This document shows, piece after piece, positions 19,111 to 34,702 of a stretch of 64,000 bases of DNA. The stretch comes from an uncultured Desulfospira sp. Its GTDB lineage: Bacteria > Desulfobacterota > Desulfobacteria > Desulfobacterales > Desulfobacteraceae. The stretch covers positions 4,640,001 to 4,704,000 of the forward strand of contig OY760175.1 in the NCBI GenBank assembly GCA_963663165.1, in the 5' to 3' direction. Made by a program: the position numbers and the translations under genes. The notes below the pieces were generated by a model, which saw nothing but the letters and a program-made list of their open reading frames with translations, had not been told where the DNA came from and searched no databases. Each line of letters begins with the position of its first letter. Position 1 is the first letter of the stretch.

Positions 19111-20304
19111 ATGGCCAAGGAGAAATTTGAGCGGACTAAACCGCATGTCAACATAGGAACGATTGGTCATATCGACCATGGGAAGACGACGCTTACCGCA
19201 GCAATCACAAAGCTTGCCGGGATGAAGGGTCACGCCGATTATGTTCCTTTTGACGAGATCGACAAGGCGCCTGAAGAAAGAGAACGTGGTATAACCATTG
19301 CAACGGCTCATGTTGAATACGAGACCGATGCGCGTCACTATGCCCATGTGGATTGCCCGGGCCATGCCGACTACATTAAGAATATGATCACCGGTGCCGC
19401 TCAGATGGACGGTGCGATCCTGGTGGTCAGTGCTGATGACGGCCCCATGCCCCAGACCCGCGAACACATTCTTCTTGCCCGTCAGGTTGGTGTGCCCAAG
19501 ATCGTTGTTTTCTTGAACAAGTGCGATATGGTGGATGACGAGGAACTCATCGAACTGGTGGAAATGGAACTTCAGGAACTGCTGGACAGCTATGAATTCC
19601 CCGGAGATGAAACCCCGATAATCAGAGGATCCGCCCTTAAAGCCCTGGAAACAGAAGACGTAGACAGTGATGAAGCCAAGCCTATTTTCGAGCTTTTGGA
19701 CACACTGGACAGCTACGTTCCGGAGCCTGAAAGAGATACCGCCAAACCCTTCCTGATGCCCATCGAAGACGTGTTCTCCATTTCCGGCCGTGGTACGGTT
19801 GTTACCGGCAGGATTGAGAGAGGGATCATCAAGACCGGTGAGGAAATCGAAATTGTTGGTATCCGTGACACCGCCAAAACCGTCTGCACCGGCGTTGAGA
19901 TGTTCAGAAAACTGCTGGATGAAGGCCAGGCCGGAGACAATGTGGGATTGCTGCTTCGCGGCACCAAGCGGGACCAGGTGGAAAGAGGCCAGGTAGTATC
20001 CAAACCGGGGACCATTACCCCCCATACCAAGTTCAAAGCCGAGATGTATGCCTTGAGCAAGGAAGAAGGCGGGCGTCATACCCCGTTCTTTACCGGCTAC
20101 CGTCCCCAGTTCTTTTTTAGAACTACGGATATTACAGGGGTTCTGACCCTTGAAGAGGGCGTTGAAATGATCATGCCCGGTGATAATGCAACCATCAATG
20201 TTGAGCTGATCAACCCCATTGCCATGGAAAAAGAACTTCGCTTTGCCATAAGGGAAGGTGGACGGACTGTTGGCGCCGGTGTTATCGGTGAAATTGTTGA
20301 ATAA
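19111..20304 (+). CDS. tuf: Elongation factor Tu, copy 1
   Basis: [17 protein letters not shown]; follows the Thr-Tyr-Gly-Thr tRNA cluster. Confidence 0.99.
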
Positions 20305-28090: not shown

Positions 28091-31000
28091 TTGGATAATA
28101 TATATGATTTCTTCGCTAAACCAAAAGATCCCAAGGTTTATCAGGGCGTTCAAATCAGCCTTGCATCTTCCGACCAGATCCGGGAATGGTCCCACGGTGA
28201 AATAAAAAAACCCGAAACCATCAATTACAGAACATTCAAGCCGGAAAGAGACGGCCTGTTTTGCGCCAAAGTCTTCGGTCCCACCAAAGACTATGAGTGC
28301 AACTGCGGTAAATACAAACGGATGAAGCACCGGGGCGTTGTGTGCGAAAAGTGCGGGGTTGAGGTCATTCAGTCCAAGGTGCGGCGGGAGCGGATGGCCC
28401 ACATTGAGCTTGCCTCTCCAGTGTCCCACATCTGGTTTCTTAAAAGCCTGCCAAGCAAAATTGGAAACGTGCTTGACCTGACCCTTAAAAACCTTGAAAA
28501 GGTTCTGTACTTTGATTCCTATATTGTGATTGACCCCAAAGACTCGGGGCTCAAAAAAATGCAGCTCCTGTCTGACGATCAGTATTATGAAGCTATAGAG
28601 GCATTTGGAGAAGAAGGATTTGATGCCGGCATCGGTGCTGAGGCTATCTTAAGGCTGTTGGAGGAAATCAACCTTCAGGAAGTTCATGATGAACTCAGAG
28701 AAGAGATTTCCATAACCAAGTCCGTTGCCAAACAGCAGAAAATGGCCAAACGGCTCAAGGTCATTGATGCATTCCTGAATTCAGGGATTGAACCTTCCCG
28801 GATGATTTTAACCGCCTGCCCCATTCTTCCCCCGGACTTAAGGCCTCTGGTTCCACTTGAAGGGGGCCGGTTTGCCACGTCAGATCTCAACGATCTGTAC
28901 CGCCGGGTGTTAAACCGGAACAACCGGTTAAAACGGTTGGTGGACCTGGATGCCCCGGACATTATTGTCAGGAATGAAAAACGAATGCTTCAAGAATCCG
29001 TGGACGTGCTGTTTGATAACGGGCGCCATGGACGGGTCGTTACGGGCACCAACAAACGGCCTCTGAAATCTTTGAGTGATACCCTGAAAGGCAAACAGGG
29101 CCGTTTCCGTCAGAACCTGTTGGGAAAACGTGTGGATTATTCCGGACGTACGGTTATTACGGTAGGCTCTGAGTTAAGGCTTCATCAGTGCGGGATTCCA
29201 AAGAAAATGGCCCTTGAGCTGTTTAAGCCGTTTATTTACAATTATCTGGAACAAAAAGGGCTGGTGTCCACCGTTAAAAGTGCTAAAAAAATGGTGGAAA
29301 GAGAGGAAACCGAGGTATGGGATGCTTTGGAATCCGTTGTAAAAGAATACCCGGTCATGCTCAACCGGGCGCCGACCCTTCACCGTCTGGGTTTCCAGGC
29401 ATTTGAGCCGGTCCTGATTGAGGGAAAGGCCATTCAGCTTCATCCCCTGGTATGCCCGGCATTCAACGCCGATTTTGACGGGGACCAGATGGCGGTTCAT
29501 GTGCCCCTTTCGCTGGAATCCCAGCTCGAAGCACGGATCATGATGCTGTCTACCAACAACATCCTCTCTCCCGCCAATGGGCAGCCCATCATTGTTCCCA
29601 CCCAGGATATTGTTCTGGGGATTTATTATATGACCCGGGCCATGGCCGGCCGGAAAGGGGAGGGAATCAGCTTTTCAAGCATTGAAGAGGTCCGGTATGC
29701 CTTTGACGCCGGGGCTCTGGATCTTCATGCAAAAATAAAGGTCCGGATCGATGATGAGACCTATGACACCACCACGGGCCGTATTCTGCTGTGGGAAACC
29801 ATCCCCGGGGATACCCTGCTCTCCTTGAGCAGAATTCGGACAGAAACTTTTGAAGAGTGCGAGCAGGCTTTAGAAGCACTTAAAGCCGGTGAAGATTTTG
29901 AAGATGTATTGAAAAAATATTCGGATGATGAAATCAAAAAGACCCGGGGAGAAACCGGTGTTCTCAGCCGAAAAGAGTTTAAGAATATTTTTCAGCTGTC
30001 TGACGTTGTGGTTGAACAGCTTTTCAGTCTTAAGAAGGGCCAGTTCACCGATGTCCGTGTGGTGGGGGATAAATATACCATTTTCAAAGTGGATGAAAGA
30101 AAGACCACCCTTCCCTTTACCCTGGTCAATAAACTCATGGACAAGTCTTCAACGGTTAAACTCATTGACTATGCCTACCGGAACATCGGGCTTAAAGAAA
30201 CCGTTATTCTGTCCGACCGGCTCAAAGATATCGGTTACCAGTATTCTACCCTGGGCGGGCTTTCCATTTGTGTGGACGACATGATTATCCCGGATGAAAA
30301 ATGGGATATTATTGCCAGGGCAGAACAAAATATTAACGACATCAAAAACCAGTATTCTGAAGGTTTGATTACCCAGGGAGAAAAGTACAACAAGGTGGTG
30401 GACATCTGGGCCCAGGCAACGGACGATATTGCCAATGCCATGATGGAAGTTATGAAAAATCCCGTGGGGGCAGCCGATGCTGAAACCGCTGAAATGATGA
30501 ACGCAGTTTACGTCATGGCGGATTCCGGGGCCAGGGGCTCCAAAGATCAGATGCGTCAGCTGGCTGGGATGCGCGGGCTTATGGCCAAGCCTTCCGGTGA
30601 GATCATTGAAAACCCCATTACGGCCTGCTTCCGTGAAGGATTGTCTGTGCTTCAGTACTTTATTTCCACCCATGGTGCCCGGAAAGGCCTGGCGGATACG
30701 GCGTTGAAAACGGCCAACTCCGGGTATCTGACCCGGCGTCTGGCTGATGTCGGCCAGGACTGCACCATTGTTGAACATGATTGCGGGACTATTAACGGCA
30801 TAGAGGTGGAAGCCCTGTATGAGGGGGGAGAAATCATTCAGACCCTGGGTGAAAGAATCCTGGGCAGGGTGACCCAGGAAGATATCCGGGACCCTTATTC
30901 AGATGAACATATTGTGGCAGCGGATACGGAACTGACCGAAGCCCACGTGGCACGGATTGAGGAGGCCGGTGTTCAAAAGGTAAAAATTCGTTCGGTGTTA

Positions 31001-32473
31001 ACCTGCAACTCCAAACACGGGGTTTGCTCCAGGTGCTACGGCCGGGACCTGGCCCACGGGATCACCGTGGAAATCGGCCAGGCCATTGGCATCGTGGCGG
31101 CCCAGTCCATTGGCGAGCCCGGGACCCAGCTGACCATGAGAACCTTCCACATCGGCGGCACCGCATCCAGAAAGGTTGAAGTTGCTGAAATAAAGGCCCG
31201 GGTGGGCGGCATTCTCAAGTATAATGAGGACATCCAGACCGTTACCTCTGCGGAAAACGAGGTGATTGTCATGAACCGGAAAGGTGGCGGTATCACCATC
31301 GTGGGGGCAGAAGGACGGGAGCGGGCCAAGGAAACTATCATCTACGGTGCCACCCTTCATCTCAAAAACGGCCAGGCCATTGAGCCCGGGGATATCATTG
31401 CCACCTGGGATCCGTTTACCACACCTATTATCACCGAGGTTTCAGGCCGGGTGAAGCTGGTAGACATTGAAGTCGGCAGTACGGTTCAAGAACAGATAGA
31501 CCCGGTGACCGGGAAGGTCAGTCGTACAATCATCGAAGGAAAAGAATCTGAGGTCCGGCCAAGAATTACCATTAAAGACAAAGACGGCAAAGCGGTAAAG
31601 CTTCCGGGCTCTAAGACCAATGCCCAGTACTACCTGCCGGTGAACGCCATCCTGACCGTTGAAGAGGATGACGCCATCATGGCCGGCGATGTTATTGCCA
31701 AACTGCCCCGGGCCACCACCAAGACAAAGGATATTACCGGTGGTCTTCCCCGTGTGGCAGAGCTTTTTGAGGTCAGAAAACCCAAAGAACCCGGCATGCT
31801 CACGGAAATCGACGGGTATGTTTCCTTGTCCAAGGGAACCAAAGGACGCCAGAAGGTTACCGTTACGCCGACCGATGTGGGGGATAAAAAAGAGTATTCG
31901 GTGCCCAAGGGCGCCCATGTGACGGTTTATGAAGGCGACTATGTCAAGGCGGGCGACGCTCTGATCGCCGGCGCCGCCAACCCCCAGGATATTATGAATA
32001 TCAAGGGCGAGGTGGCCCTTGCGAAGTATCTGGTGGACGAAGTTCAGGAGGTCTACCGGTTGCAGGGGGTTCGGATCAATGACAAACACATAGAAGTTGT
32101 CATCCGGCAGATGATGCGCCGGGTTAAGGTCACCAGCCCCGGAGACACGGAATTTATTCCGGATGAGCAGGTTGACCGGGTTATTTTTGAAGAAAGAAAC
32201 CGTGAGGTTGCCATGAAGGGCGGTGAGCCGGCCAAGGGGGAACCATTAATCCTTGGGATTACAAAGGCTTCTCTTTCAACAGACAGTTTTCTGTCGGCTG
32301 CATCATTTCAGGAAACCACAAAGGTGTTGACTCTGGCGGCCATTGAAGGAAAATACGACAGCCTCAAGGGATTAAAGGAAAACGTGGTGATGGGCCGGTT
32401 GATTCCAGCCGGTACCGGATTCCCCGGTTACCACAACGTCGAGGTGGAAGCCGGGGAAGTACAGGAAGTATAA
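28091..32473 (+). CDS. rpoC: RNA polymerase beta' subunit with an internal parvulin-like insertion
   Basis: Zn ribbon, [46 protein letters not shown] start. Confidence 0.99.
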
Positions 32474-32993: not shown

Positions 32994-33461
32994 ATGGCAG
33001 ATAAAGAAATCGTTATTGAGAATATTTCACGGGATGCCACCCAGGAACAGAAACTGGCGGCAAAATTTGTAAACTGTGTGATGAGGGACGGCAAGAAAAA
33101 TGCTGCCCGTAAGGTGGTGAGCAACGCCTTGTCCATTGCCGAAGATAGGATTGGTGAACCGGCTCTGGCGGTGTTTTCAAAGGCGGTTGATAATATCAAG
33201 CCGGCAGTGGAGGTAAAGTCCAGAAGAATCGGAGGGTCCACATATCAGGTCCCGACAGATGTTAAGCCGAGCCGGCAGACCGCCCTGGCTTTCAGGTGGC
33301 TGATTAACTTCAGCCGGAGCCGTTCGGAAAAAGGGTTTGCCAACAAACTCGCAGGTGAGTTGATGGATGCTTACAACAACAGGGGCGGCGCCATCAAAAA
33401 AAGAGAAGATACGCACAAAATGGCAGAGGCAAACAAGGCTTTTGCCCATTTCAGGTGGTAA
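32994..33461 (+). CDS. rpsG: 30S ribosomal protein S7 with divergent N-terminus
   Basis: KFVNCVMRDGKK, VKSRRIGGSTYQVP, HKMAEANKAFAHFRW. Confidence 0.97.
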   Translation: MADKEIVIENISRDATQEQKLAAKFVNCVMRDGKKNAARKVVSNALSIAEDRIGEPALAVFSKAVDNIKPAVEVKSRRIGGSTYQVPTDVKPSRQTALAFRWLINFSRSRSEKGFANKLAGELMDAYNNRGGAIKKREDTHKMAEANKAFAHFRW

Positions 33462-33508: not shown

Positions 33509-34702
33509 ATGGCTAAGGAGAAATTTGAGCGGACCAAGCCGCATGTTAACATAGGAACGATTGGTCATATCGACCATGGGAAGACGACGCTTACCGCAGC
33601 AATCACAAAGCTTGCCGGGATGAAGGGTCACGCCGATTATGTTCCTTTTGACGAGATCGACAAGGCGCCTGAAGAAAGAGAACGTGGTATAACCATTGCA
33701 ACGGCTCATGTTGAATACGAGACCGATGCGCGTCACTATGCCCATGTGGATTGCCCGGGCCATGCCGACTACATTAAGAATATGATCACCGGTGCCGCTC
33801 AGATGGACGGTGCGATCCTGGTGGTCAGTGCTGATGACGGCCCCATGCCCCAGACCCGCGAACACATTCTTCTTGCCCGTCAGGTTGGTGTGCCCAAGAT
33901 CGTTGTTTTCTTGAACAAGTGCGATATGGTGGATGACGAGGAACTCATCGAACTGGTGGAAATGGAACTTCAGGAACTGCTGGACAGCTATGAATTCCCC
34001 GGAGATGAAACCCCGATAATCAGAGGATCCGCCCTTAAAGCCCTGGAAACAGAAGACGTAGACAGTGATGAAGCCAAGCCTATTTTCGAGCTTTTGGACA
34101 CACTGGACAGCTACGTTCCGGAGCCTGAAAGAGATACCGCCAAACCCTTCCTGATGCCCATCGAAGACGTGTTCTCCATTTCCGGCCGTGGTACGGTTGT
34201 TACCGGCAGGATTGAGAGAGGGATCATCAAGACCGGTGAGGAAATCGAAATTGTTGGTATCCGTGACACCGCCAAAACCGTCTGCACCGGCGTTGAGATG
34301 TTCAGAAAACTGCTGGATGAAGGCCAGGCCGGAGACAATGTGGGGTTGCTGCTTCGCGGCACCAAGCGGGACCAGGTGGAAAGAGGCCAGGTAGTATCCA
34401 AACCGGGGACCATTACCCCCCATACCAAGTTCAAAGCCGAGATGTATGCCTTGAGCAAGGAAGAAGGCGGGCGTCATACCCCGTTCTTTACCGGCTACCG
34501 TCCCCAGTTCTTTTTTAGAACCACGGATATTACAGGGGTTCTGACCCTTGAAGAGGGCGTTGAAATGATCATGCCCGGTGATAATGCAACCATCAATGTT
34601 GAGCTGATCAACCCCATTGCCATGGAAAAAGAACTTCGCTTTGCCATAAGGGAAGGCGGACGGACTGTTGGCGCCGGTGTTATCGGTGAAATTGTTGAAT
34701 AA
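33509..34702 (+). CDS. tuf: Elongation factor Tu, copy 2
   Basis: Protein identical to 19111-20304. Confidence 0.99.

Follow-up and report, generated by a model that had tools for sequence, protein, structure and literature searches.

What is a stretch of about a hundred additional residues doing inside the β′ subunit of RNA polymerase? The question is raised by the rpoC gene of an uncultured Desulfospira sp. (28091..32473, + strand), which lies in the 64,000-nucleotide stretch of contig OY760175.1 that was analyzed (hereafter the window) and encodes a β′ subunit of 1460 amino acids, with a TTG start as given in the open reading frame (ORF) list. A first-pass annotation, made from the DNA letters, had proposed that a parvulin (rotamase) domain was captured at this point as a lineage-specific insertion and that it serves as a noncatalytic surface module. 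Our analysis showed that the extra stretch is a parvulin-fold domain inside β′.

Extent and fold of the β′ insert

The Pfam Rpb1 domains 1-5 were all found in the β′ ORF (E 8e-80 to 1e-18), and window positions 29813-30109 (+) gave a stop-free translation of 99 residues, in frame within the 1460-residue ORF. In the BLASTP comparison with E. coli K-12 rpoC (NC_000913.3), P572 and L674 of the window were aligned with P584 and L587, respectively, of E. coli, so that 101 window residues (573-673; 29807..30109, +) stand where E. coli has K585-G586. In the global alignment of the window and E. coli β′ proteins, residues 573-673 were the sole window-specific stretch of 8 residues or more. The translation and both alignments thus confirmed the earlier claim of about 99 extra residues between flanks that are contiguous in E. 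coli. The N-terminal flank (residues 560-572; 29768..29806, +), where the bacteria-specific β-rich subdomain of the pore domain ends, aligns with E. coli up to P584 and is kept in outgroup RpoC, and the conserved C-terminal flank LPFTLVN (residues 674-680; 30110..30130, +) aligns with E. coli L587-PYSIVN. The two flanks were contiguous in E. coli, in all solved RNA polymerases matched, and in 11 outgroup RpoC sequences. No counterpart of the insert was present in any Protein Data Bank (PDB) β′ chain matched, each of which aligned as two pieces bracketing the insert. The stretch is an in-frame, lineage-specific insertion between blocks conserved in bacterial β′.

The fold of the insert was assessed with sequence profiles and with predicted structures. 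The whole β′ protein exceeded the Pfam cut-offs of 27 bits for Rotamase_2 and 21.7 bits for Rotamase, with scores of 29.6 and 24.6 bits, respectively; Rotamase_2, the best-scoring family for the window, is presumably the one that covers PpiD. When the isolated stretch was compared with three Pfam parvulin families, E values of 9e-8, 7e-7, and 7e-6 were obtained. An alignment of 67 inserts (A1) was built from the window and the orthologous stretches of 66 other genomes, with three near-identical ones (L002, L006, and L043) omitted. Scanned singly at E ≤0.001, these inserts matched Rotamase in 53, Rotamase_2 in 47, and Rotamase_3 in 42 of the 67 cases. The best match of the A1 profile was the prolyl isomerase (PPIase) domain of B. 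subtilis PrsA (E 7.5e-13), followed by SurA, Par14, Par10, PpiD, and Pin1.

The AlphaFold2 model computed on A1 (m50ee43da3707; predicted local distance difference test score, pLDDT, 81; predicted template modeling score 0.67) consisted of a strand, three helices, a strand, two helices, and two strands. This parvulin-fold core (β1, three helices, β2, two helices, β3-β4) occupies residues 575-672 (29813..30106, +). In the Foldseek search against the PDB, 34 matches were obtained at E ≤0.001, and among the matches listed, all were parvulins except the leptospiral hypothetical protein 3nrk. The top matches were PrsA (4wo7, E 7e-6), BB0108, PpiD (2kgj), Par14, Pin1, and SurA, with template modeling (TM) scores of 0.6-0.7. 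When the domain was modeled within residues 500-800 (alignment A3, 45 rows), the same elements were recovered with pLDDT values of 79-92. Compared with PrsA, the insert has about five extra residues and one additional helix after β2. No HABAS or BEAN structure was among the Foldseek matches and the model is an α/β parvulin, so the insert has neither the SBHM/HABAS nor the BBM/BEAN fold. The first-pass annotation had stated that the insert follows the parvulin consensus; the Pfam Rotamase scan, the A1 profile, and the AlphaFold model with its Foldseek comparison all returned parvulin. PF13145 was already tagged on many insert-bearing RpoC proteins in precomputed Pfam lists, that is, the domain is visible to automatic annotation.

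Occurrence, descent, and selection

Genomes were searched with a 179-residue query comprising the insert and 40 residues on each side. In the order sample (201 genomes), 178 gave an insert-type match (best E 3e-14 or better, mostly as a single piece over residues 1-179), 10 gave a flank-only match (E 3e-10 or weaker), and 13, with completeness of 64-96%, gave no match; split matches were obtained for two genomes (G095 and G137). No hit confined to the flanks was stronger than 9e-11. The class sample, in which all 151 genomes carried the same order label, contained 143 insert-type matches, 4 flank-only matches, and 4 genomes without a match. Among the 201 genomes of the phylum sample, the insert-type matches were six, namely the six genomes of the window's order, and 45 genomes were without a match in all. 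None of the 195 phylum-sample genomes of other orders had the insert; only adjacent flank pieces or free-standing parvulin ORFs were matched there (best E 1.8e-11). Close homologues came, by source name, from Desulfobacter, Desulfotignum, Desulfobacula, and metagenome-assembled genomes (MAGs) of Desulfobacteraceae. A scan of public records with a 10-row alignment of histidine-type inserts gave 221 pattern matches, of which 130 were confirmed and 80 kept. The histidine-type records were labeled Desulfobacterales, Desulfobacteraceae, Desulfosarcinaceae, Candidatus Desulfatibia, Desulfatitalea alkaliphila M08but, and Eth-SRB1/2, with one Nitrospinaceae. These results show that the insert is common to most Desulfobacterales and is not private to the window genome.

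The insert profile was also compared with 1.84 billion cluster representatives, where it matched short whole-profile fragments (7 of the top 11 rows) and many multi-parvulin proteins. That search returned no full-length RpoC and is uninformative on the RpoC of other phyla, because insert-free representatives cannot score against an insert-only profile.

Several records were observed on the side. A MAG labeled Nitrospinaceae (L146, CAXMTB010000006.1) carries a Desulfobacterales-type insert with 54% identity and is probably a mislabeled or mis-binned contig. Two RpoC-matching open frames were unusually long (G185:C159, 2433 amino acids; G409:C6, 2297 amino acids) and could be an rpoB-rpoC fusion, which is present in a few other bacteria, or a read-through. 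At a further locus (L083, G025:C12:26500-27700), rpoC is interrupted within the insert by a change of frame and a TGA, with frames of 198-236 amino acids, and this probably reflects an error-rich assembly rather than a split β′.

A maximum-likelihood tree of RpoC was calculated from about 1,100 residues with the insert excised, using 50 rows (30 insert-bearing, 9 insert-free of the order, and 11 outgroups). All 30 insert-bearing rows fell in one 36-row clade of Desulfobacterales with a Shimodaira–Hasegawa-like approximate likelihood ratio test (SH-aLRT) support of 100, and 6 rows without an intact insert were nested within this clade. The insert-free families f8 (G031) and f82 (G105 and G202) branched on the outgroup side (support 100), and their junction was outgroup-like, P-x-E-(I/L)-P-(F/Y); on this placement, their lack of the insert is a primary absence. 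The window's family stands on a long branch (0.41). The insert is inherited vertically within one lineage. The topology fits a single gain with later losses, an order of events that is the simplest reading, and not a proven one, of a midpoint-rooted tree made with a quick method. The fold matches, the RpoC tree, and the 0 of 195 genomes in other orders bear out the earlier proposal that a parvulin domain was captured as a lineage-specific β′ insertion.

The nested rows without an intact insert take different forms. In G213 (L079, G213:C14:22500-25900), the parvulin core is cleanly deleted, with the stubs 'DNI|KRPEIPF' left, and its congeners carry the full domain. What remains in family f45 is 25 residues long and not a parvulin; in families f21 and f70, which likewise have no intact insert, there are a few extra residues. 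Separately, the insert of family f54 (L081 and L082; G077 and G229) has about 30 further residues after its first helix, an insert within the insert, with both histidines present. As a side observation, G213 constitutes a natural Δinsert allele.

Selection was examined by the ratio of nonsynonymous to synonymous substitution rates (dN/dS) in 12 pairs, of which 5 had an unsaturated dS for both the insert and the flanks and the other 7 were saturated. Within the window's family, the insert had dN/dS values of 0.04, 0.065, 0.13, and 0.19 in four pairs, compared with 0.014-0.041 for the flanks (1,080 codons); for the fifth, more distant pair, which spans two other families, the values were 0.38 for the insert and 0.10 for the flanks. 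dN was 2.5 to 5 times greater in the insert than in the flanks. The insert was exactly 99 amino acids long in 51 of 67 cases, and no stop codon occurred inside it across about 180 assemblies, save one error-ridden assembly. By these codon comparisons, the insert is under purifying selection; alignment across the phylum and dN/dS, the checks that the first-pass annotation had suggested, gave a clade-restricted presence and constraint.

With regard to the origin of the domain, the window genome has two other parvulins, a PpiD-like ORF (651 amino acids), hydrophobic in an N-terminal segment, and a SurA-like protein (314 amino acids) that carries a signal peptide. Because these two carry a signal peptide or a hydrophobic N-terminal segment, the RpoC insert would be the only parvulin domain of this genome expected in the cytoplasm. 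A recent duplication of a resident parvulin gene was rejected, as the E values of the PpiD-like and SurA-like proteins against the insert profile reached only about 1e-7. Of the free-standing relatives seen, the nearest were lipoprotein-like proteins of about 315 amino acids from other orders of the phylum (L075, G444:C82; L077, G414:C2). They share 42% identity over 97 residues with the window-type insert, lack both histidines, and have the 'DD..KTRG.NTG' loop in common with it; they may be related to the donor, or the likeness may be convergent. Free parvulin ORFs were variable in the outgroups. The idea that the insert substitutes for an absent free cytoplasmic parvulin does not hold generally, since two insert-bearing genomes also have small free parvulin ORFs (G108, 98 amino acids; G082, 82 amino acids).

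Active-site residues, probable position on the enzyme, and possible roles

In the profile alignment to PrsA, R581 (29831..29833, +) occupies the first parvulin histidine position (Pin1 H59, PrsA 'sHIL') and T663 (30077..30079, +) the second (Pin1 H157, 'GYHII'). HIL is replaced by R581-I-R and YHI by Y662-T663-I, which agrees with the earlier reading that both histidines are replaced, and by this alignment the conserved histidine pair of parvulins is absent from the window's insert. For the residue counts, A1 was split into the window's family, Desulfobacteraceae (20 rows), and the other families (47 rows). Column 581 was R in 18 of 20 and H in 0 of 20 rows of the window's family, whereas it was H in 36 of 47 rows of the other families; column 663 was T, N, or Y and never H (0/20) in the former, and H in 37/47 of the latter. 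The window's family kept neither histidine in any of its 20 inserts, compared with both in 32 of the 47 others, one or both being gone in the remaining 15.

The loop before G-x-L-G contains Cys or Asp in parvulins (Pin1 C113, Par14 D74, and the PrsA Asp). The corresponding column, D615, was Asp in 1/20 rows of the window's family and in 33/47 of the other families. The window has D612 and D613 in this loop, and D613 stands at a PrsA-like spacing of −10 from G623, an equivalence that is uncertain because parvulin loop lengths vary. The hydrophobic proline pocket is formed by L122, M130, and F134 in Pin1 and includes M57 and F61 in Par10. The column of the pocket Leu, 622, had T in 19/20 rows of the window's family; in the others, it was L, I, or V in 34/47. 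The best-conserved block of the insert was T622-G623...F630...F634-Q635 (29954..29995, +), with G623 in 64, F634 in 60, and F630 in 56 of the 67 A1 rows. F630, F634, K628, E629, and N632 were each present in 20/20 rows of the window's family, where R627, K628, E629, N632, Q635, Q651, R670, and K671 were near-invariant. F630 and F634 were retained in both family groups and have the spacing of Par10 M57 and F61, as assigned by distance from G623; we take F634 to be the equivalent of Par10 F61. According to the accessible text of PMC7353009, Par10 M57 is a substrate-binding residue and the F81A mutation abolishes the PPIase activity of Par10. At the F81 position, column 660, even the histidine-type inserts had D, E, or G.

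Because 32/47 other-family inserts keep both histidines and 33/47 keep the loop Asp, the ancestral insert resembled an ordinary, and perhaps active, parvulin. The noncatalytic surface module of the first-pass annotation would fit the window's genome and family; since so many inserts of other families retain both histidines, it does not extend to the whole order.

The linkers on either side of the domain are about two residues long, and the first and last strands of parvulins are neighbors in the sheet, so the domain is probably held rigidly on the polymerase surface. When the residues were mapped onto E. coli β′, K598 lay 12 residues downstream of the insertion point, and residues K685-K702 of the window (30143..30196, +) were equivalent to the E. 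coli K598-K615 helix. According to the available text of PMC7676912, E. coli β′ K598 and K599 are 6-10 Å from the tip of the DksA coiled coil, inside the secondary channel, and the helix starting there ends at K615 in guanosine tetraphosphate (ppGpp) site 1, adjoining ω. In the domain table of PMC11515920, the insertion site falls where β′-bD4 finishes and the second half of β′-uD3 begins. Equivalents of E. coli R362, K615, I619, and D622 are present in the window (R363, K702, I706, and D709), with R417 changed to K418, as are those of the rim residues E677, N680, K681, and D684 (E764, N767, K768, and D771). As a separate observation, the β′ residues of E. coli ppGpp sites 1 and 2 are conserved in the window except for Y626, which is D713.

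The most likely course of events is that a PrsA/SurA-like parvulin domain was acquired once by the ancestor of a large Desulfobacterales clade, in the β′ surface loop where the bacteria-specific β-rich subdomain meets the second half of the pore domain, and that it has since been retained by purifying selection with an almost fixed length. The Desulfobacteraceae replaced four positions together, namely both histidines, the Asp of the loop, and the proline-pocket Leu, and the two pocket aromatics and a basic helix (RKEF-N-F) became nearly invariant there. For the window genome, we hold with a little over even confidence that the isomerase chemistry has been lost, so that proline isomerization would have ceased, and that the domain now offers, close to the secondary channel and ω, a fixed surface for peptide/protein docking or for regulation. 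To the observed fold, site, phyletic pattern, selection, and residue changes, this proposal would add rigid attachment, a spatial position, the loss of catalysis, and docking. A precedent for a link to transcription is the free E. coli parvulin PpiC, which, in the accessible text of PMC7353009, co-purifies with NusG, Rho, SuhB, and RpoA.

Several points weigh against this docking proposal. The loss of the histidines is no proof of a loss of activity, and Pin1 histidine mutants keep some activity. The insert is dispensable in some backgrounds, since it was lost or became degenerate in nested lineages (G213, f21, f45, and f70). The placement relative to ω, the rim helices, and the channel derives from sequence distance and the E. 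coli paper. Moreover, the faster dN of the insert also fits a loosely constrained passenger domain.

Such a tolerated passenger, functionless and kept because its removal would disturb β′ folding, is in our judgment unlikely. It would be compatible with the repeated loss or degeneration inside the clade and with an amino-acid divergence above that of the flanks. However, dN/dS was as low as 0.04-0.19 in the four unsaturated family pairs (0.38 in the more distant fifth), 51/67 inserts share one length, stops are absent across the ~180 assemblies bar the error-ridden one, and some surface residues (R627, K628, E629, N632, Q635, Q651, R670, and K671) are near-invariant in the window's family.

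Less probable still is an active prolyl isomerase attached to RNA polymerase, with the window's family remaining active through a remodeled site; its targets could be NusG, σ, Rho, Gre/DksA, β′ itself during assembly, or nascent peptides in coupled translation. The histidine pairs and loop Asp of most other-family inserts would suit such an enzyme, as would the pocket aromatics F630 and F634 retained in all groups, the −10 spacing of window D613, the status of the insert as the sole parvulin domain of the window genome without a signal peptide or membrane anchor, and the presence of transcription factors among the E. coli PpiC clients (accessible text of PMC7353009). Against it stand the four joint changes in the window's family (H to R, H to T/N, L to T, and loss of D615), the D/E/G of histidine-type inserts at the position whose F81A mutation abolishes Par10 activity (PMC7353009, same text), the 15/47 other-family inserts that have lost one or both histidines, and the small free parvulin ORFs that accompany the insert in G108 and G082. 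A combined reading, which we regard as equally doubtful, is that the insert of most Desulfobacterales families would be a competent prolyl isomerase held rigidly by the secondary channel and that in the window's family it would have been converted to a docking site coupled to ppGpp site 1 via the K598-K615-equivalent helix. If true, a PPIase would for the first time be an intrinsic part of a cellular RNA polymerase, as a counterpart in bacteria to Pin1/Ess1 on RNA polymerase II (Pol II), and prolines in polymerase-bound factors or nascent chains could be isomerized.

A role in nucleic-acid contact through the basic helix, with backtracked RNA at the secondary channel or with downstream or upstream DNA, is very unlikely. 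Basic residues are conserved (R627 and K628 in the window's family or R/K626-627 in the others, and R670 and K671), and human Par14 binds DNA. However, Par14 does so mainly via an N-terminal extension that is absent from the insert, and the charge is not conserved across the clade, because the K628 column is D or E in 37/47 other-family inserts. Finally, an artefact (misassembly, mobile element, intein, or frameshifted region), in favor of which nothing was found, can be dismissed, because the in-frame insert recurs at the identical site in independent assemblies (178/201 in the order sample and the 130 confirmed public-record matches), the genome is one contig of 6.74 Mb, and the Foldseek matches identify a parvulin and not an intein.

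Locus context and comparison with known systems

The gene order around rpoC in the window is tuf-secE-nusG-rplKAJL-rpoB-rpoC-rpsL-rpsG. Two tuf copies of 397 amino acids each, with identical Pfam scores, were observed at window positions 19111-20304 and 33509-34702 (+). rpsG (32994-33461, +) precedes the second tuf, which starts at 33509; unlike in the classical str operon, where fusA lies between rpsG and tuf, there is no fusA between them.

The closest likeness of the insert is to the PPIase domains of PrsA, SurA, and PpiC (Par10) (PF00639, PF13145, and PF13616), with which it shares the fold and the order of secondary structure elements (TM 0.6-0.7), the pocket aromatics and, in most orthologues outside the window's family, the two histidines. 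Those domains are free or part of a periplasmic chaperone, whereas the insert lies inside another protein and has the extra five-residue segment and the extra helix after β2; in the window, moreover, other residues stand in place of both histidines, the pocket Leu, and the usual loop Asp. PpiD and SurA-P1, of which PpiD (2kgj) was a top structural match, resemble the window insert as parvulin folds without the canonical catalytic set, and these domains are noncatalytic chaperone or binding modules. They are periplasmic and act on unfolded envelope proteins, whereas the insert would be cytoplasmic and fixed to RNA polymerase.

Among lineage-specific inserts of RNA polymerase, β′In6/SI3, β′In2, βIn4, βIn9, and the BEAN/HABAS inserts described by Alvarez-Carreno et al. 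(2024) in the available text of PMC11515920 are likewise in-frame, in a surface loop, confined to one lineage, and near a functional channel. Their folds, as given there, are HABAS/SBHM, BEAN/BBM, or small left-claw folds and not parvulin, and none of the seven insertion sites in that text is described at the K585/G586 junction. The words parvulin, rotamase, PPIase, and isomerase do not occur in the main text of this 2024 survey. In full-text literature searches, no description of a parvulin/PPIase domain in β′ was found, in agreement with the remark of the first-pass annotation that no parvulin insert was known to it, and older insert catalogues may list an unnamed insert here. As far as found, both the parvulin fold and the K585/G586 site would be new among described RNA polymerase inserts. 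Lineage-specific inserts tune the response of bacterial RNA polymerase to secondary-channel factors, and the described ones comprise a few β-rich folds; a parvulin in such a role would broaden the repertoire. The histidine-bearing, histidine-less, and natural-deletion versions within the clade provide a comparative series for function, and the insert is a clean molecular marker of a large clade of sulfate reducers.

The remaining parallel is with Pin1/Ess1 on Pol II's C-terminal domain (CTD), where a parvulin-family domain is also physically associated with the largest subunit; Pin1 was itself among the matches. No equivalent of Pin1's basic phosphate-binding loop was identified in the insert. 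Pin1/Ess1 is a separate protein that is recruited to phospho-Ser-Pro repeats by its WW domain, whereas the insert is a covalent part of a β′ that has no CTD. One polypeptide would join transcription machinery and a domain for protein folding or peptide binding, recalling both Pin1/Ess1 and the transcription-factor clients reported for free E. coli PpiC.

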